From an uncultured Candidatus Saccharibacteria bacterium (GTDB taxonomy: Bacteria > Patescibacteriota > Minisyncoccia > UBA6257 > 2-01-FULL-56-20), in assembly GCA_964612445.1 (NCBI GenBank), contig CAZTBQ010000002.1, forward strand, positions 1 to 27,444: a stretch of DNA of 27,444 nucleotides. The letters are read 5' to 3'. The first letter of the stretch is position 1; every line of letters starts with the position of its first letter. This document shows positions 1-11,152 of this stretch, one piece after another. A program made the translations under genes and the position numbers. Below the pieces are notes generated by a model. That model was not told where the DNA came from, ran no database searches, and saw nothing but the letters and a program-made list of their open reading frames with translations.

Positions 1-2
1 AC

Positions 3-1283
3 ACCTCTCTTAACTTATTTTCCTCTGATGTAGTAAATGGCTTCATGGGAACTTCCACAATAATCTACGTATCTATCCCAGACTCATCTCCAACCTGTGC
101 CAATTTAGGACTTCCAACACTGGCAACTTCTTCATATACATATAATTGCGTAACAACTCAAAATCTCCGCAAAACTGATGGCACCGGTTGGATTCCGGTT
201 AACTTCCAAAGAATCTCATCTAATTCTCCAATTTCACAACTTCCAATAGACCCACAAAATACAACTACCACCAACTCCTATTACACTTACATAACTGGAG
301 GTTCTTGGAAGCTAACCGCAGTATCTCTAGAATCTCAAAAATACATAGCTCAAGGTAACACCGATGGAGGAACAGCTCCATCTTCATTTGAAATGGGTAA
401 TAATATGTCACTCGGGTCAACTGTATTTCCAAACAACTGGATTAAAGTCCCCGGAAACTCCACCTTTGGAACATCCGACTTCTGGGTTATGAAATATGAA
501 GCAAAGTGCGCGGATACGAGTGGAAATTTACTCACAACTCCAACTGAATCTACATACCAAATCTACAATGCTCATGGCGCTGGCGGAACTGCTTGTACTT
601 CTGCTAACTCCAGATATGTAACTTCGGCTCCAACTGGATATCCGATAACTCGGATCGCCCAAAACAAAGCGGGCGCAGATAATGATGCTATCGAATACTG
701 CCAATCTATCGGGGCACGCCTAATTACCAACAACGAATGGCAAACTATTTCTTGGAATGTACAAAATGTTTCTTCCAACTGGAGTGGGGGTTCGGTCGGG
801 AGTGTGTACATGAGCAGAGGCAATTCAAATGGTTCCGCAGCACAAATTGCATCCGCAGACGACACAAACTCAACCTACCTTACCGGATACACTGATTTTA
901 CCCATAGGAGAACTCATTCACTTTCCAACGGACAAACAATTTGGGATTTAGCTGGTAACGTTTGGGAGTGGACCAACGACACAATCACTGGAGCGAATCA
1001 ACCGTACGCGACAACTCCAGGTTTTGCATGGAGACAGTTCAATACAATCACAACTTGGGGAACGATGACTCAACAAACTGCAGGTCCCTCCAATAATACT
1101 TGGAGCACAACTCAAGGAATGGGACAAATTTATTCCGATGGCACAGGTTCAAATGCTACTAACTACGCTTTCTTCCGTGGTGGCCGTTGGCTCAATGGCA
1201 CGTACGCCGGAGTAGAGACGTTGGCTCTGGACAATGGCCCGACGATTACGGCCGGCGACATTGGCTTCCGTTGTGCCCGGTAG
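3..1283 (+). CDS. 5'-truncated putative surface protein: pilin-like N-terminal region plus C-terminal FGE-sulfatase/C-type lectin-fold (CLec) domain; probable DGR target
   Basis: Frame is open from base 3 (TSLNLFSSDVVNGF precede the ORF-track Met at 45), so the true start is upstream of the window. CLec/SUMF1-like motifs: KYEAK, AIEYCQSIGARLITNNEW, IWDLAGNVWEW, RGG-x-W, terminal GFRCAR. LPIDPQN...YYTY resembles pilin/GspG-like motifs. Confidence 0.8.
   Translation, partial: TSLNLFSSDVVNGFMGTSTIIYVSIPDSSPTCANLGLPTLATSSYTYNCVTTQNLRKTDGTGWIPVNFQRISSNSPISQLPIDPQNTTTTNSYYTYITGGSWKLTAVSLESQKYIAQGNTDGGTAPSSFEMGNNMSLGSTVFPNNWIKVPGNSTFGTSDFWVMKYEAKCADTSGNLLTTPTESTYQIYNAHGAGGTACTSANSRYVTSAPTGYPITRIAQNKAGADNDAIEYCQSIGARLITNNEWQTISWNVQNVSSNWSGGSVGSVYMSRGNSNGSAAQIASADDTNSTYLTGYTDFTHRRTHSLSNGQTIWDLAGNVWEWTNDTITGANQPYATTPGFAWRQFNTITTWGTMTQQTAGPSNNTWSTTQGMGQIYSDGTGSNATNYAFFRGGRWLNGTYAGVETLALDNGPTITAGDIGFRCAR
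1176..1283 (+). other. Putative DGR variable region (VR)
   Basis: 68/108 nt G+C (63%, counted), clearly above the gene body; all four Thr codons are ACG. Positions that are Asn in typical template repeats carry NNC/NNT codons (CGT, CTC, TAC, GCT, GAC, ATT, GCC, GGC, GAC). Confidence 0.75.
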
Positions 1284-1350
1284 ATATTATTTGATCCCGC
1301 ACTAAACCGGGCATAGTCCTTGAGATGGCGATCGTTGCATGGTTTCAGGG

Positions 1351-1380
1351 ACCAAGCACTATGAGTACATAGTACTCGGT
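1351..1380. repeat. 30-nt hairpin repeat (family H), copy 1
   Basis: ACCAAGCACTATG-AGTA-CATAGTACTCGGT, 13-bp stem with 2 mismatches; homologous to 8649-8678. Confidence 0.7.
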
Positions 1381-1411
1381 CAACCGCCAGTACAGGCGGT
1401 TGACTTATTTT
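1379..1411 (+). terminator. Perfect 10-bp hairpin followed by T-rich tract; possible terminator or REP-like palindrome
   Basis: GTCAACCGCC-AGTACA-GGCGGTTGAC then TTATTTT. Confidence 0.55.
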
Positions 1412-1428
1412 CAATTATTTACTATCAT
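1400..1428 (+). promoter_or_regulatory. Sigma70-type promoter for rpsL operon
   Basis: TTGACT (1400-1405), 17-nt spacer, TATCAT (1423-1428), 36 nt before the rpsL ATG. Confidence 0.7.
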
Positions 1429-1464
1429 CTTTAAACATATTCCCAGACAGGGAAGTTAGTTTTT

Positions 1465-1890
1465 ATGCCGACAATACATCAATTAATTAAAAAAGGGAGA
1501 AAGTCGCTGAAGACCAAAACAAAGTCTCCGGCTTTTTCGTACTATTTTAACCACATTCAAAATAAGCGAGTTGATTCTCCGTCTCCGTTCAAGAGAGGAG
1601 TTTGCTTGAAAGTTTTTACCACCACTCCAAAGAAACCAAACTCAGCCTTGCGAAAAGTTTGCCGTGTTCGTTTGACTAATGGAATGGAAACCACTGCTTA
1701 TATTCCAGGAGAAGGACACAACTTACAGGAACACTCTATCGTTGTTCTCCGCGGAGGAAGAGTTAAAGATTTGCCGGGTGTTAGATATCACGTTGTTCGT
1801 GGTGTTTTGGATACTTCCGGAGTTGATAACCGAAAACAGCAGAGATCAAAGTATGGTTCTAAGAAAAATGCCGGAGCAGCCAAAAAATAG
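1465..1890 (+). CDS. rpsL: 30S ribosomal protein S12
   Basis: [39 protein letters not shown] motifs; long-loop form. Confidence 0.99.
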
Positions 1891-1893
1891 TAG

Positions 1894-2058
1894 GTGAGCG
1901 TAGCGAACCTACCGAGCACATAAATTAACCAACAAAAAATGAAATTTACTGATATAAAAACAAATGAATTGGTCGGAAGCAGGGCATATAGTGATATGTG
2001 CTCGGTGCTCAATTCTGTAGATAAATTTTTATCGTCTACAGACTCAAAAATTTAAACA
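1894..2058 (+). repeat. Structured intergenic element (family T), copy 1
   Basis: TGAGCGTAGCGAACCTACCGAGCACATAA, 72-nt unique spacer, ATGTGCTCGGTGCT, then a TGTAG..CTACA hairpin; matches 2538-2703. Confidence 0.85.
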
Positions 2059-6774: not shown

Positions 6775-6805
6775 CAAAAAACGGCTCCGCGAGGGCCGTT
6801 TTTTG
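6775..6805 (+). terminator. Intrinsic terminator after rpsJ
   Basis: AAAAAACGGCTCC-GCGA-GGGCCGTTTTTT; GNRA loop and T tract. Confidence 0.8.
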
Positions 6806-6806
6806 G

Positions 6807-6977
6807 TTTTTCCAGCAGAAGACGTTTTTATTTTGATTTCGTCGGGTCGCTGTCTAGCTCCTCCTGCGGGAGCTAGCGCTGCCGCTCGTTCACTTTGCTC
6901 TCGCAAAGCGAGAGACCAAGCCAAAGTGAACTGCGCGACACCCGCCGAAATTAAAATAAAAGAGTCGGTTGGAAAAA
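6807..6977. repeat. Multi-branch palindromic element (family M), copy A
   Basis: Outer arms TTTTATTTTGATTTCGTCGGG / CCCGCCGAAATTAAAATAAAA; inner CTAGCTCC-TCCTGCG-GGAGCTAG; GTTCACTTTG[CTCTCGC-AAA-GCGAGAG]ACCAAGC-CAAAGTGAAC. Confidence 0.7.
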
Positions 6978-7233
6978 CTTGGTTGAAAATAAGTGATTAA
7001 GAACAAATTTCGATGTCCTGCCACAAACAGAAATATCGGCGGTTTTAAAACTTATTTTACGAGTGGTGACAGGGCGAAGACAGAGACCAAGCCAAAATGA
7101 ACTGTTTACGGTGAGCATAGTCGAACCGCGCGATACCCCTTATAGGTAAAATATATTTCAAATAGCAAGATAGCAGTTAAGAAAACTTATTTGACGAGTG
7201 GTGAGTGTGGGAGAATTGATTTATTATTCAATC

Positions 7234-7494
7234 ATGTTAGATGATGTAGCAAAAAATGAAAAAAGTTGGGGCAAAGAAGAGTGGCAAGAGATGAGAGCTA
7301 AACTCGAAATTTTGCCGCTCAACAAGCTAAAACTGTTGGCAAAAAATGTTGGTATTCGATTTTCCGGGGAAGATTATGATTTATCGGATCATCCAAAATT
7401 GTCCGAAAAAGAGCAGTTAATTTTAGTTATGGATGAGGTTGAAAAGGAAAAACTCGTTTTTGAGTACGAAAAATTGAAAGGAATTACTGAATAA
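7234..7494 (+). CDS. Hypothetical protein (86 aa from ATG 7234); weak resemblance to Rho-N/HeH helical modules
   Basis: The ORF-track GTG at 7198 lies inside a repeat motif, so ATG 7234 is preferred. Contains LEILPLNKLKLLAKNVGI...LSEKEQLI. Confidence 0.65.
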   Translation: MLDDVAKNEKSWGKEEWQEMRAKLEILPLNKLKLLAKNVGIRFSGEDYDLSDHPKLSEKEQLILVMDEVEKEKLVFEYEKLKGITE

Positions 7495-7564
7495 GTATAG
7501 CTTTCTTGTTCGGTGGGCTTTTTTGGTTTATTCTTTTTGTAGCAATTAAAAAGAGGAGGAAGAC

Positions 7565-7912
7565 ATGCTGTCGCGATTCTTTGGGTGGCTGAAGTTACTA
7601 TTTTTCAAGCCTGCCGTCAAAGATCCTGTGGTTGAGCTGACGCGAATAGCAAAATCAGGTATACCTACGGGAGTGACGTTTGATCCCAAAAGTCTAACTT
7701 TCAAGATTACCGATGTTGGCGCATATTTTGGGAATTGGGATGAGTTTGAGCGCGAGAGCGAAGAGCGGCGAATGCGCGCTGAGCGTACGCAAGCCCTGAC
7801 GATTTCTCGTGACGGGGCATCATCAATTGAGACTCCGGAAGACCTTATTAGATATTTTAGGAATGTTCCCGAAGAAAAGCGTCGAGCGGTTTTGTTCGAG
7901 ACAAAAAAGTGA
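7565..7912 (+). CDS. Hypothetical protein (115 aa) with short amphipathic N-terminus
   Basis: AGGAGG (7554-7559) 5 nt before ATG; followed by a terminator hairpin. Confidence 0.75.
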   Translation: MLSRFFGWLKLLFFKPAVKDPVVELTRIAKSGIPTGVTFDPKSLTFKITDVGAYFGNWDEFERESEERRMRAERTQALTISRDGASSIETPEDLIRYFRNVPEEKRRAVLFETKK

Positions 7913-7916
7913 AGTG

Positions 7917-7942
7917 ACCTGCCTTGGGCAGGTTATTTTTTT
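7917..7942 (+). terminator. Intrinsic terminator
   Basis: ACCTGCC-TTG-GGCAGGT followed by TATTTTTTT. Confidence 0.75.
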
Positions 7943-7988
7943 ATTCAAAAATGTTATTCTGAAGTTAGCAGTTTTAATGGAGGCGCGC

Positions 7989-8324
7989 ATGAAAAGTGCT
8001 TGGCAGGCCAGAATGGAGGTAGAAGCTCTTATTGAACTTGCCAAAGATGGGATGAGCGTTCCTTCGCCTGGGCTCGGTCAGGGCAAGCGATGTAAAAATA
8101 ATATGCAGATTATCTTGAAAGAGATAAACTCCGCCATCGCTAAGGGGAATTGTTCGGTGTATGTTTCTGCTGGGCAGCTGAGATTTCGCAAGCATATTAT
8201 CAAGGGTGAGCAGGTTGGTATTTTGCTTCGTAGATTGATGCGGCTTGGATACGGTGTTTCATTTCACGCCAGCGAACACTATGGAAGCCCCATAATTCGT
8301 ATTTATTGGAAAACCCAGGTTTAA
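7989..8324 (+). CDS. Hypothetical protein (111 aa from ATG 7989)
   Basis: GGAGG (7979-7983) 5 nt before ATG 7989. The longer ORF-track version (from 7809) overlaps the upstream gene and its terminator. Confidence 0.65.
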   Translation: MKSAWQARMEVEALIELAKDGMSVPSPGLGQGKRCKNNMQIILKEINSAIAKGNCSVYVSAGQLRFRKHIIKGEQVGILLRRLMRLGYGVSFHASEHYGSPIIRIYWKTQV

Positions 8325-8534
8325 GGCTTGGGATTTTTTGTATATTACGAAAATACTAATTGGTACTAATTTTACGAATAATTAGTTGAGCTGTTGGGTT
8401 GACCCCGCACCAAGCCGAACGCTGGTCCTTGAGTATGGTTTGATTTGAGGGTGTTCCGATATTAATAAGTATTATATGGATTGTTATATTTCTTCATTGG
8501 TCGGACAGGAAAGGCGTTCGTCTGGTGACAGGGT

Positions 8535-8605
8535 TCAATCCCGTAGTGAATCTCGCTTATTGAATGTAGCGTCTTCGACGCTAGCGAGATTCTACTACGG
8601 GTTGA
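8535..8605. repeat. Long imperfect palindrome with internal hairpin
   Basis: TCAATCCCGTAGTGAATCTCGCT / AGCGAGATTCTACTACGGGTTGA with one bulged T per arm; inner TAGCGTC-TTC-GACGCTA. Confidence 0.7.
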
Positions 8606-8630
8606 CATAAGCCCTCCCATAGACTAATAT
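8602..8630 (+). promoter_or_regulatory. Sigma70-type promoter for the rplC operon
   Basis: TTGACA (8602-8607), 17-nt spacer, TAATAT (8625-8630). Confidence 0.6.
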
Positions 8631-8648
8631 ATGCAAGTCACTTTAATG

Positions 8649-8678
8649 GCTAAGCACTTAAGCAATTAAGTACTCAGT
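8649..8678. repeat. 30-nt hairpin repeat (family H), copy 2
   Basis: GCTAAGCACTTAA-GCAA-TTAAGTACTCAGT; same two mismatches as 1351-1380. Confidence 0.7.
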
Positions 8679-8835
8679 TACATAAGGATAACCGATTAGG
8701 CAATCGCCCGGGAATCCTTGGCGGTTTTTTTATAACAAAATAGGCGGGTTTCGGTGGCGAATAGTCAAAACGCTCAAGCACATATAATGTGCTCGGTCAT
8801 AATTTTCTAACTCGCTTTCGCTCGCAACAAAATTT

Positions 8836-9381
8836 ATGAGTTTCATATTAGCAAAAAAAGTAAAAATGACTCAGATCTGGAAGGACGGAAAAATCGTTCC
8901 AGTAACTGTAGTTAAAGCGGAACCTAACAAGGTTTCTTTAGTGCGTACTAACGATCGAGATGGATATAGCGCGGTTCAAGTTCAGCTCGGAAGGACCAAA
9001 AAGGAATTTTCTATTAACGAAGGAGAGACTTTTGAGGTTGGACAAGAGATTTCAGTTGCCACCTTCACTGAAGGTGAAGATGTGACTATCTCCGGGCTTT
9101 CGAAGGGACGCGGTTTTCAGGGTGGAGTTAAAAGACATGGTTTCCACGGAGGACCTAAAACTCACGGTCAGAAAAACAGATATCGAGCACCAGGATCCAT
9201 CGGTAGTACTGCTCCTCAAAGAGTTGTTCCGGGAAGGAGAATGGCCGGACACTTTGGAATGGAAAGAAATACTCGAAAAGATGTAAAAATCGTTCAGATT
9301 GATGCCGAAAATAACTATTTGATGTTAAAAGGTGCAGTTCCGGGGGGTCCAGGAACTTTGGTAGAAATTTTCAAAGCGTAA
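8836..9381 (+). CDS. rplC: 50S ribosomal protein L3 (short form, 181 aa)
   Basis: K..MTQI, DGYSAVQ, SKGRGFQGGVKRHGF, R.PGSIG, MAGHFG, KGAVPG. Confidence 0.98.
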   Translation: MSFILAKKVKMTQIWKDGKIVPVTVVKAEPNKVSLVRTNDRDGYSAVQVQLGRTKKEFSINEGETFEVGQEISVATFTEGEDVTISGLSKGRGFQGGVKRHGFHGGPKTHGQKNRYRAPGSIGSTAPQRVVPGRRMAGHFGMERNTRKDVKIVQIDAENNYLMLKGAVPGGPGTLVEIFKA

Positions 9382-9382
9382 A

Positions 9383-10030
9383 ATGGAAGCAAAAATTTAT
9401 AATCTTAAAAACGAAGAAGTTTCTTCCATTAAATTACCGGAAGATATTTTTGACAGAAAGTTTAGCGAGGCCTTAGTAAAACAGGTTCTTTTGGCGCAGA
9501 TGGCTAACTCTCGTGAACCTTGGGCGCATGCCAAAGGACGAGGAGAAGTTCGTGGTGGTGGTAGAAAGCCATGGAAACAAAAGGGAACCGGTCGTTCAAG
9601 ACACGGTTCAATTCGATCACCAATTTGGAAGGGTGGTGGAAAATCACATGGTCCAGTCAAAGAACGTGACTATTCTCAGAAAGTAAACAAGAAAATGAAA
9701 AGAGCTGCTCTTTTTGCTGTTCTTTCAAAGAAATTCCGAGTTGGCGAAATTAAATTTATGGAAGATCTTAACCTGAAGACCGGAAAGACCAAAGAATTTG
9801 CTCCTATTTTGGCAACTCTTTCAGGAAAACAGCCAAAAGGAAAGAAGTACGACACTCTCTTGGTTTATGCTCCAGAAGGTGGACGCAATCTTGCTTTGGC
9901 AAGCCGAAATCTTCCAAAGACCAAGACTATTTCTTCAACTTCGCTTAATGTCTACGACTTGTTGAACTACAAGAATCTTTTAATTGACCAGAAGGCAGTC
10001 GCAGTCATTTCCGAACACTATAAAATTTAA
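9383..10030 (+). CDS. rplD: 50S ribosomal protein L4
   Basis: KGRGEVRGGGRKPWKQKGTGRSRHGSIRSPIWKGGG motif. Confidence 0.99.
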   Translation: MEAKIYNLKNEEVSSIKLPEDIFDRKFSEALVKQVLLAQMANSREPWAHAKGRGEVRGGGRKPWKQKGTGRSRHGSIRSPIWKGGGKSHGPVKERDYSQKVNKKMKRAALFAVLSKKFRVGEIKFMEDLNLKTGKTKEFAPILATLSGKQPKGKKYDTLLVYAPEGGRNLALASRNLPKTKTISSTSLNVYDLLNYKNLLIDQKAVAVISEHYKI

Positions 10031-10032
10031 AC

Positions 10033-10317
10033 ATGGCAGATACATTCTTAATCAAAAAAATAGGAATTACCGAAAAATCTTCCGTTATGCAGGAAGGAGG
10101 TAAATACATGTTCCATGTAAAGCTTTCTGCTACTAAACCAGAAATCAAAAAAGTTATTGAAGAACTTTATGGAGTTAAGGTTGTCGGTGTAAACGCTCTC
10201 AGATCTTTTGCAAAAGCAAAGAGATTTGGTTCCGTTTATGGTGACAAGCCTGAATACAAAAAAGTTTATGTAACTTTGAAAGAAGGTCAAAAAATCGATG
10301 TTTTAGGAACAAAGTAA
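10033..10317 (+). CDS. rplW: 50S ribosomal protein L23
   Basis: ITEKS, ATKPEIKKVIEELYGVKV, YKKVYVTLKEGQKI; operon position. Confidence 0.97.
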   Translation: MADTFLIKKIGITEKSSVMQEGGKYMFHVKLSATKPEIKKVIEELYGVKVVGVNALRSFAKAKRFGSVYGDKPEYKKVYVTLKEGQKIDVLGTK

Positions 10318-10321
10318 AAAT

Positions 10322-11152
10322 ATGAAATCTTTTTCACCAACAAGTCCATCCCGAAGAAGCTTCACTGCGGTTGAATACCGAAAGCTTTTGACTGGCGATA
10401 AGCCATACAAGAAGCTCATGAAGAAAATTCATGATAGCGCCGGAAGAAACTCTCAGGGAAGAATTACTCAGAGACATCAAGGAGGAGGAAATAAAAAGAT
10501 GTACCGTGTTTGGGATAGCAAGCAGAATAAGTTGGGGTCCTCATTTATTTTAGAGACCATTGAATACGATCCATACAGAACCTCTTTCATTTCTTTGATT
10601 AAATACGAAGACGGAACAAAGTCTTACATTCTAACTCCACACGGAGTTTCAAAGGGAGCTCAATTGTTTATCGCTGAAGCTGCTCCGCTCAAGTCCGGAA
10701 ACAGAATGAAATTGAAGAATATTCCAGTTGGTTATCAGGTTCACAACGTTGAAATGCAGCCAGGACAAGGTGGAAAGATAATTCGCTCCGCTGGTTCCTA
10801 TGCAGAAGTTTTGGCTAACGCTGACGGATATACTGATTTAAAGATGCCATCCGGAGAAGTTCGAAGGGTCCTTTGGGATTGTTTGGCTACTTTGGGTCAG
10901 GTTTCAAACATCGAACACAACTTGGTTGTTGGAGGAAAAGCAGGACGTTCCAGGTGGTTGGGTGTACGACCGACAGTTCGTGGATCTGCAATGAATCCAG
11001 TTGATCATCCATACGGTGGTGGTGAAGGCTCACAGCCTCGTGGTACCAGGAAGCCGAAAGATGTCTGGGGTAATGTTACTGGAGGAAGAAAGACTCGTAA
11101 GAAGAGAAATCCAACTTCAAGGTTAATCGTAAAAAGAAGGAATAAAAAATAA
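10322..11152 (+). CDS. rplB: 50S ribosomal protein L2
   Basis: GRNSQGRIT, IEYDPYR, RPTVRGSAMNPVDHPYGGGEG. Confidence 0.99.
   Translation: MKSFSPTSPSRRSFTAVEYRKLLTGDKPYKKLMKKIHDSAGRNSQGRITQRHQGGGNKKMYRVWDSKQNKLGSSFILETIEYDPYRTSFISLIKYEDGTKSYILTPHGVSKGAQLFIAEAAPLKSGNRMKLKNIPVGYQVHNVEMQPGQGGKIIRSAGSYAEVLANADGYTDLKMPSGEVRRVLWDCLATLGQVSNIEHNLVVGGKAGRSRWLGVRPTVRGSAMNPVDHPYGGGEGSQPRGTRKPKDVWGNVTGGRKTRKKRNPTSRLIVKRRNKK

Follow-up and report, generated by a model that had tools for sequence, protein, structure and literature searches.

A probable modular type IV pilin with a C-type-lectin module and a frozen variable region in a Saccharibacteria genome

The first 1283 nucleotides of a 27,444-nt stretch of DNA from an uncultured Candidatus Saccharibacteria bacterium (the window, G000:C2:1-27444, whose first base is base 1 of contig C2) hold an open reading frame (ORF), 3..1283, that is cut at its 5' end. 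With a probability of about 0.85, this ORF encodes most of a modular (bimodular) type IV pilin of ~477 aa, which carries a C-type-lectin-fold module of the type found in formylglycine-generating enzymes (FGE), ends in a frozen variable region (VR) and belongs to a family of paralogues. An earlier reading of the sequence, hereafter the original prediction, had described the product as the target of a diversity-generating retroelement (DGR) in which a type IV pilin-like scaffold is fused to a lectin domain. The fusion was borne out by a leader on a second contig (C32), a pilin-type fold model and a C-type-lectin fold match. The DGR part holds for the family, through a VR, template repeat (TR) and reverse transcriptase (RT) at metagenome locus L060 and four hypervariable homologue clusters, but not for the window copy, for which neither RT nor TR was found in the genome. 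The genome (G000; 567 kb in 60 contigs, 90% complete, 41.7% GC) is that of an ultra-small bacterium of the candidate phyla radiation (CPR). Modular lectin-bearing minor pilins are already known, and the window copy adds to them an ordinary, frozen and assembly-truncated member.

From N- to C-terminus, the protein would comprise a basic leader ending in Ser, Phe+1, Glu+5, a hydrophobic alpha-1 helix, a disulfide-bonded beta-sheet head, a linker and a lectin module of ~280 aa. As in modular pilins generally, a pilin module is thus followed by an independent domain that is not specific to type IV pili (T4P). The features of the gene, all on the plus strand, are as follows.

3..1283: modular type IV pilin gene, its 3' 426 codons and the stop codon; no stop interrupts the frame back to base 3.
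3..44: end of helix alpha-1 of the pilin, on its C-terminal side (TSLNLFSSDVVNGF); helix 2-9 in the window-ORF model (m18f6968e28f7), aligning with the end of helix 41-70 of the N-terminal model.
45..410: head of the pilin module, a globular beta-sheet domain (ORF aa 15-136), with an invariant Cys pair and the GTGWIPVNF segment; placed from the AlphaFold 2 (AF2) model of a paralogue, its structural matches to pilins and invariant columns.
240..290: LPIDPQN...YYTY motif, a loop entering a beta strand of the pilin head; placed from conservation and strand 154-159 of model m4fe75c824127.
411..437: short linker joining the pilin and lectin modules; modelled without regular secondary structure from E129-132 to E146-149.
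438..1280: C-terminal lectin module (ORF aa 146-426), of the FGE-sulfatase-type C-type-lectin fold but without the FGE catalytic Cys pair; placed from PF03781, Foldseek and a PDB profile.
1164..1283: static equivalent of a DGR VR (..FFRGGRWLNGTYAGVETLALDNGPTITAGDIGFRCAR, then the stop codon), without a TR; 58-63% GC and 13-18% A, compared with 41.7% GC genome-wide, and homologous to the VR of L060.

The pilin module and its truncated 5' end

Because the frame of ORF 3..1283 is open back to base 3 and the window starts at the first base of its contig, the pilin gene is incomplete at the contig edge. Its ATG at 45 lies within the coding sequence and is not the start codon, and ~51 codons, covering the leader and most of helix alpha-1, lie beyond the contig start. 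The minus strand of contig C32 terminates in 55 nt identical to window 1-55, and joining the reverse complement of C32 to the window through this overlap gives an ORF of 477 codons, 51 of them upstream of the window. The joined ORF begins MSLLGKNRQS/FTLIELLVV, where the slash marks the cleavage site; on C32, leader and helix read MSLLGKNRQS/FTLIELLVVLALVAILSVVVV, and in the joined frame MSLLGKNRQS/FTLIELLVVLALVAILSVVVVMTLNPAELLKQARDSNRLSDLATVN runs directly into the window ORF. C32 thus supplies every element of a class III signal peptide (a short leader with basic residues, a small -1 residue, Phe+1, Glu+5 and ~20 hydrophobic residues) directly upstream of the window, where the original prediction had expected any prepilin leader to lie. 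The same signal peptide and helix occur in all full-length paralogues and homologues.

The ORF, the residues quoted in that prediction and its LPxDPxN...YxY motif were all found in place, with LPIDPQN at nt 240-260, YYTY at nt 279-290 and the codons of the two Cys residues at 96-98 and 147-149. When 70 homologues are aligned with the ORF (window ORF numbering), P81 and D83 are invariant, and L80, P84, N86, Y93, Y94 and Y96 are each at least 90% conserved; since its columns are conserved across this set, the motif goes beyond chance. Also invariant are the two cysteine residues, C32 and C49, and the residues G62, W63 and P65. The 70 homologues were picked for carrying PF07963 (N_methyl), and their 70/70 rate for this family is therefore by selection; among the best 120 database matches, ~85 carry it, and many of the others are short and probably truncated. 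Around the cleavage site, F+1, T+2, L+3 and E+5 are invariant in the 70 homologues, and position -1 holds only Ser (34), Ala (21) or Gly (15). A full-length paralogue on contig C4 (P0001; 487 aa, 79% identical to the window ORF over 426 aa) matches PF07963 with 28.9 bits (cut-off 21.2) and TIGR02532 with 17.9 bits (cut-off 16.3), and it also matches PF03781. The two Pfam families, PF07963 and PF03781, occur together in P0001 and in 69-70 of the selected homologues.

The fold of this module was assessed on an AF2 model of the first 205 aa of P0001, built from the 70-sequence alignment (pLDDT 89.6, pTM 0.80), in which a helix at 18-70 is followed by strands at 81-87, 107-111, 154-159, 163-168 and 190-193. 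In an unbiased VIA-align search of 48,161 representative chains, independent of Foldseek, almost every one of the top 26 rows was a type IV pilin or pseudopilin (Z 5.3-3.3). The type IVb pilin of enterotoxigenic Escherichia coli (9iuf, Z 5.3), EpsG (4lw9, Z 5.0, root-mean-square deviation 3.8 over 91 residues) and PilA4 (6xxd, Z 4.9) led the search, with PilJ, PilA1, PilE, PilV and PulG behind them; a single rare fold class is clearly enriched. The family profile, run against PDB sequences, reached Geobacter PilA at 9e-9, a PilA at 6.8e-5 (aligned through position 117), PulG at 1.4e-4 and PilA4 at 1.5e-4, whereas a single-protein phmmer search of the PDB returned zero matches. The module is accordingly modelled, with moderate support, as a lollipop pilin fold, consisting of an extended alpha-1 helix and an antiparallel beta-sheet head. 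The further claim that PxDP..YxY is an established motif of GspG-type pilins was not confirmed by sequence; as no Pfam pilin-head family matches, what speaks for it is the structural match to EpsG.

Several points weigh against the assignment as a pilin. The leader and class III signal peptide lie outside the window itself, and its first 55 nt also stand at the start of contig C10 (reverse complement), which bears a paralogue; as this 55-mer is common to C2 and C10, the assembly graph alone is undecided between a C32-C2 and a C32-C10 join. The upstream search for a G/F-x-x-x-E site, proposed with the original prediction, did find a prepilin site with Phe+1, Glu+5 and the helix, but the site is S/F rather than G/F, and because Ser instead of the canonical Gly stands at -1, cleavage by PilD is an assumption. 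Pfam pilin-head families (T2SSG, Pilin) match none of the 71 members. The VIA-align Z scores are individually modest (at most 5.3), and Foldseek of the N-terminal model against the PDB returned no significant pilin match, although its top four rows were Clostridioides difficile PilW and PilA1. Even so, with a class III signal peptide upstream and pilin matches for the N-terminal domain, neither of the two outcomes named as refuting the original prediction has occurred. As for the join, the genes on its two sides, those on the reverse complement of C32 (including an alaS-like gene) and the rpsL-rpsG-fusA of the window, have colinear counterparts on one and the same contig of a same-genus genome, G004. 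This synteny favours, at the level of gene order, the C32-C2 join over C32-C10.

The lectin module and the state of its variable region

The C-terminal module matches Pfam FGE-sulfatase (PF03781) with an E-value of 2.3e-12 over aa 210-426, some homologues bear the automatic NCBI name 'SUMF1/EgtB/PvdO family nonheme iron enzyme', and formylglycine-generating enzymes rank next after the best match in a Foldseek search with the AF2 model of the window ORF (pLDDT 86.7); all three would suit an enzyme of the SUMF1/EgtB/PvdO (formylglycine-generating enzyme) family. However, the Pfam match is limited to model positions 88-255, and the best Foldseek match is TaqVP (5vf4, E 1.1e-7), the non-enzymatic variable protein of a Thermus aquaticus DGR; Mtd comes after the enzymes. 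TaqVP is also matched by the family profile run against the PDB (3e-5). FGE catalysis requires a copper-binding Cys pair. Given this need, an enzymatic role is unlikely for a protein whose last 47 residues contain a single Cys, which sits within the GFRCAR ending typical of DGR variable proteins. The domain is, moreover, joined to a pilin module, from which it is separate in the AF2 models, and the enzyme reading is on balance highly improbable. The C-type-lectin fold with its variable segment at the C-terminus is instead that of a DGR variable protein.

Judged from their sequences, the pilins with this type of C-type-lectin module (hereafter, pilin-CLec proteins) include true DGR targets. Four clusters of homologues, formed at 90% identity and 41-46% identical to the window ORF, show little variation over ~440 aa, two of them hardly any, yet 17-27 variable columns in their last ~40 residues. 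All of the 10-13 columns with at least four different residues fall within these last ~40 residues, and the hypervariable ends follow the pattern RGGxWxxGSxAGAFxLxLxWxxGxxxxxVGFRCAR. At L060, a 505-codon frame, open from stop to stop (6783-8300), carries PF07963 and PF03781. Its VR (8178-8299) differs from a TR located 470 nt downstream (8767-8885) by 14 substitutions, 14/14 at TR adenines, and one 3-nt indel. The TR encodes an Asn-rich segment, RGGNWDNGDNAGVFTLNLNWDTTNQNNNVGFRCAR, and is followed by an RVT_1 reverse transcriptase (PF00078, 9089-10117, 9e-22). Loci L063 and L064 show 18/18 mismatches at adenines. In three proteins of the cluster of P0119 (P0136, P0143 and P0144) and in L069 (99-218), the diversified sequence ends ..WGCVALGRSVAI.. 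in place of ..VGLRCAR; here, the variable region is read out of frame.

For the window copy, the evidence says that there is no DGR targeting, and its VR appears, from the sequence comparisons available, to be frozen. The competing possibility is that the gene is the active, remote target of a DGR whose RT and TR lie in the ~10% of the genome left unassembled or unbinned, or on a phage or plasmid, and which rewrites nt 1164-1280. Some features are in line with this: homologues of the gene are genuine targets, its final 120 nt have the high GC and low A content of a VR, and its last 18 nt match the end of the L060 VR and TR at 17/18 positions. A GC-rich, A-poor segment with such a match also fits descent from a DGR-served ancestor, and a DGR-like C-terminus alone is no evidence of an active DGR. 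The incompleteness of the genome (90%, in 60 contigs) leaves room for missing parts, but the assembled genome yields no RVT_1 candidate, and tblastn searches with two DGR RTs (one from G004, one from L060) and the target protein of G004 gave no match at E up to 1, and thus no RT or target remnant. No template repeat was found by BLAST with 7-nt words across the 567 kb. A scan for 'same base or A' recovered the VR itself at 120/120 and otherwise only A-rich tracts at up to 92/120; it was run for all four CLec paralogues in the genome, with the L060 TR as positive control (83/83). A common template for these four paralogues was rejected, as they differ throughout, including at synonymous sites.

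Public data bear on the same question. The stretch or part of it occurs in 20 public runs, which come from 11 studies of wastewater, sludge, digesters and biofilms (2016-2025), and contigs of four runs (X1, X2, X5 and X7) were compared with the window. The contig from X1 (529-1379) and that from X5, which belongs to another study and year (873-1350), show zero differences, the VR-like part included, in a comparison of contigs, which drop rare variants and could let low-level variation escape. Since an active DGR would yield a different VR in each sample, as in the four homologue clusters, this identity speaks against one, and 'hypervariable', the word used in the original prediction, does not describe this copy. 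The contig from X2 (163-1421) has five differences, three of them at 404-411. In X7, a biofilm metagenome, an identical contig stops at 1183 and 1201-1350 is uncovered, which is weak evidence for rewriting and amounts to a coverage gap only. Relative to the copy in the sister species, the codons of the VR scaffold carry synonymous differences (GCT/GCC, CGT/CGC, GGC/GGG), which indicate ordinary drift; repeated homing from one template would have erased them.

RTs are common in the taxonomic family of the window (70/120 sampled genomes), which might favour a remote DGR. Adenine-specific TR/VR pairs were found at 17/23 RT loci of this family (L022-L043), but the targets at all 17 are proteins of 216-320 aa without a pilin leader or a GFRC ending, and no pilin-CLec gene was found within ~9 kb of any of the 23 RTs. 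Taken with the searches and run comparisons above, these results make an active remote DGR improbable. The small targets have endings such as ..GRIAVGK or ..VFSRNS and form a target family different from the pilin-CLec proteins.

The locus itself differs between the two species. In G004 (L021, G004:C3), a complete DGR (7829-10461) fills the slot that separates the alaS-like gene from rpsL, with a target of 225 aa (7829-8506), a VR (8363-8488), a TR (8946-9071) and an RT (9394-10461); the VR/TR pair has 20 mismatches, all at adenines, and the target has no Pfam match. In G000, the slot is occupied by the pilin-CLec gene without any DGR part, and window 1-1400 shows no similarity to the G004 cassette. 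When P0152 was searched against 400 genomes of the class, only G000 and G004 matched, at a threshold (E 1e-120) too strict to show distribution; a family-alignment search of genome contigs gave at least three weak loci.

Pilus machinery, paralogues and a proposed mechanism

The genome encodes a prepilin peptidase (PilD, Peptidase_A24; C1:7698-8078), PilB/PilT-type ATPases (T2SSE; four matches above the cut-off, on C3, C19 and C1) and two PilC genes (T2SSF, on C1 and C3), and hence the peptidase, assembly ATPase and platform protein expected of a genome with type IV pilins. Two separate T4P gene clusters are present. The cluster at G000:C1:4126-10100 comprises an ATPase, PilC, a 149-aa pilin, PilD and two more pilins, and that at G000:C3:23417-27179 comprises a plain pilin, PilB and PilC. 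The plain pilin on C3 has 185 aa after the cleavage site and lies directly upstream of pilB and pilC. Among the plain cluster pilins, it is the only one with an alpha-1 helix in common with the modular family.

In tblastn searches, the pilin module was found at eleven places in the genome. Four copies (on C2, C4, C10 and C53) carry the FGE-sulfatase module, and six (on C8, C34, C36, C44, C49 and C52) change after the linker to a sequence starting ..GYWKFDEG..; 5/6 of the latter end ..DD(V/I)R(I/F/A)YNRALSA.EI.ALYN(A/S)TK. The copy on C52 matches Pfam N_methyl and Laminin_G_3 (PF13385, 2.3e-25) and is the only Pfam-confirmed LamG-type copy. These LamG-type paralogues part from the window ORF at the linker, after ...GNN(L/M).L. 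The C3 copy is the plain pilin. Contigs end inside pilin paralogues at the start of C2, the end of C10 and the start of C32, as well as on C14, C8, C53 and C3, and the 55-mer of window 1-55 is found at three contig ends in the genome. The near-identical 5' modules of the paralogues fragment the assembly, and they could also permit recombination between copies.

These data also bear on a reading in which the pilin-like N-terminus is only a signal anchor or a pseudopilin-type stalk, such that the protein would be a membrane-tethered surface lectin and not a pilus subunit. The modular copies with a known leader have Ser at -1, in contrast to the Gly of the plain pilins in both T4P clusters, but invariant F+1 and E+5 and a -1 position limited to S, A or G across the 70 homologues indicate selection on a peptidase site. 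Although the gene is flanked by the alaS-like gene and rpsL and belongs to neither T4P cluster, its alpha-1 helix is nearly identical to that of the plain pilin beside pilB and pilC. A bulky module of 280 aa would be difficult to place in a filament body; bulky modular pilins have nevertheless been shown to be pilus subunits in Streptococcus sanguinis and in Nanosynbacter lyticus TM7x (PMC8179133, PMC11623550). A tethered surface lectin is thus unlikely, and the modular pilin remains the preferred reading.

For a modular pilin, the following mechanism can be proposed. The prepilin peptidase of the genome would cut the leader, and the protein would enter the filament through one of the two PilB/PilC machineries, as a subunit of low abundance and probably at the tip. 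The likeliest builder of the filament into which it would co-assemble is the C3 plain pilin, whose alpha-1 helix is almost identical to that of the modular copies over the first 39 residues. The lectin module would then bind a ligand displayed by a host cell or a particle. Elsewhere in the CPR, a DGR rewrites ~10-12 residues of the lectin binding face; in G000, adhesin diversity would come instead from the ~11 pilin-family paralogues, most of them lectin-headed (four CLec and six LamG-type).

In a broader and more tentative proposal, pilin-CLec proteins may act as reprogrammable host-recognition T4P tips in CPR episymbionts, with lineages alternating between DGR rewriting (as at L060) and, after DGR loss, a frozen repertoire of paralogues with swapped lectin modules (as in G000). 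The slot between the alaS-like gene and rpsL, which holds a DGR cassette in the sister species and the pilin gene in G000, is consistent with such an alternation, which is possible but the less probable outcome.

Related systems and the downstream region

Modular pilins have been defined as a class, with >1,200 proteins in 264 architectures, many from CPR bacteria (Raynaud et al., 2021; PMC8179133). The architecture IPR012902-IPR005532, i.e., an N-methylation motif with a sulfatase-modifying-factor domain, is represented by eight proteins in Dataset S1 of that study (PMC8179133). The predicted protein of the window ORF resembles PilB (vWA module) and PilC (ConA-like lectin module) of S. sanguinis in its class III signal peptide, small pilin module, short linker and bulky module, which serves adhesion in S. 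sanguinis (PMC8179133), and the LamG paralogues share the PF13385 architecture with S. sanguinis PilC. Unlike these two, the window protein has an FGE-type C-type-lectin module, Ser at -1 and a CPR host with ~11 pilin-family paralogues.

Closer in taxonomy, the Saccharibacteria member N. lyticus TM7x has minor pilins, PilX1 and PilX2, with lectin-like C-terminal domains; PilX2 has a non-canonical signal peptide and is required for efficient host binding (PMC11623550). TM7x is a CPR episymbiont with two T4P systems (PMC11623550), much as G000 has two PilB/PilC clusters. However, the TM7x modules are a beta-jelly-roll and a beta-propeller, unlike the module in the window, and no DGR link is described there (PMC11623550). 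The lectin module resembles TaqVP (5vf4) and, more distantly, Mtd (1yu0) in its FGE-type C-type-lectin fold and its C-terminal variable segment ending GFRCAR. It differs from both in lacking a TR, an RT and, at contig level, population variation, and an N-terminal pilin is absent from the solved variable proteins.

In typical CPR targets of DGRs (DGR clade 2), neither transmembrane segments nor other domains can be recognised (Roux et al., 2021; PMC8144416), a description that the small targets of the taxonomic family (216-320 aa), from the same phylum-level group, fit. Pilin-CLec proteins are a DGR target class apart from these typical CPR targets, and a less described one. In a 2024 survey, 'GspG-type pilin' appears among the rare domains of VR-holding proteins (PMC11661182), and DGR diversification of type V pilus adhesins has been reported in Bacteroides (bioRxiv 2024.11.15.621889). 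In cultivated CPR bacteria, no organ of host contact other than the type IV pilus has experimental support (PMC9894109, PMC11623550). As CPR bacteria live attached to other cells, the pilin-CLec family offers candidate determinants of host specificity, and pilins tipped with a DGR-rewritable fold would link two CPR traits, abundant DGRs and pilus-mediated episymbiosis.

Downstream of the gene, rpsL starts 181 nt past the stop codon, behind a terminator hairpin and a promoter-like site, which is a further point against DGR targeting of this copy. A search of Rfam with window 1-2000 gave no match. The hairpin is the remaining feature of the region.

1378..1405, plus strand: terminator-like hairpin of 11 pairs, then TATTTT; the right arm extends into the -35 box of the promoter-like site of rpsL (1400-1428).

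Near-exact copies of this hairpin are present elsewhere in the genome, at G000:C4:10804-10838 and G000:C46:2864-2893.

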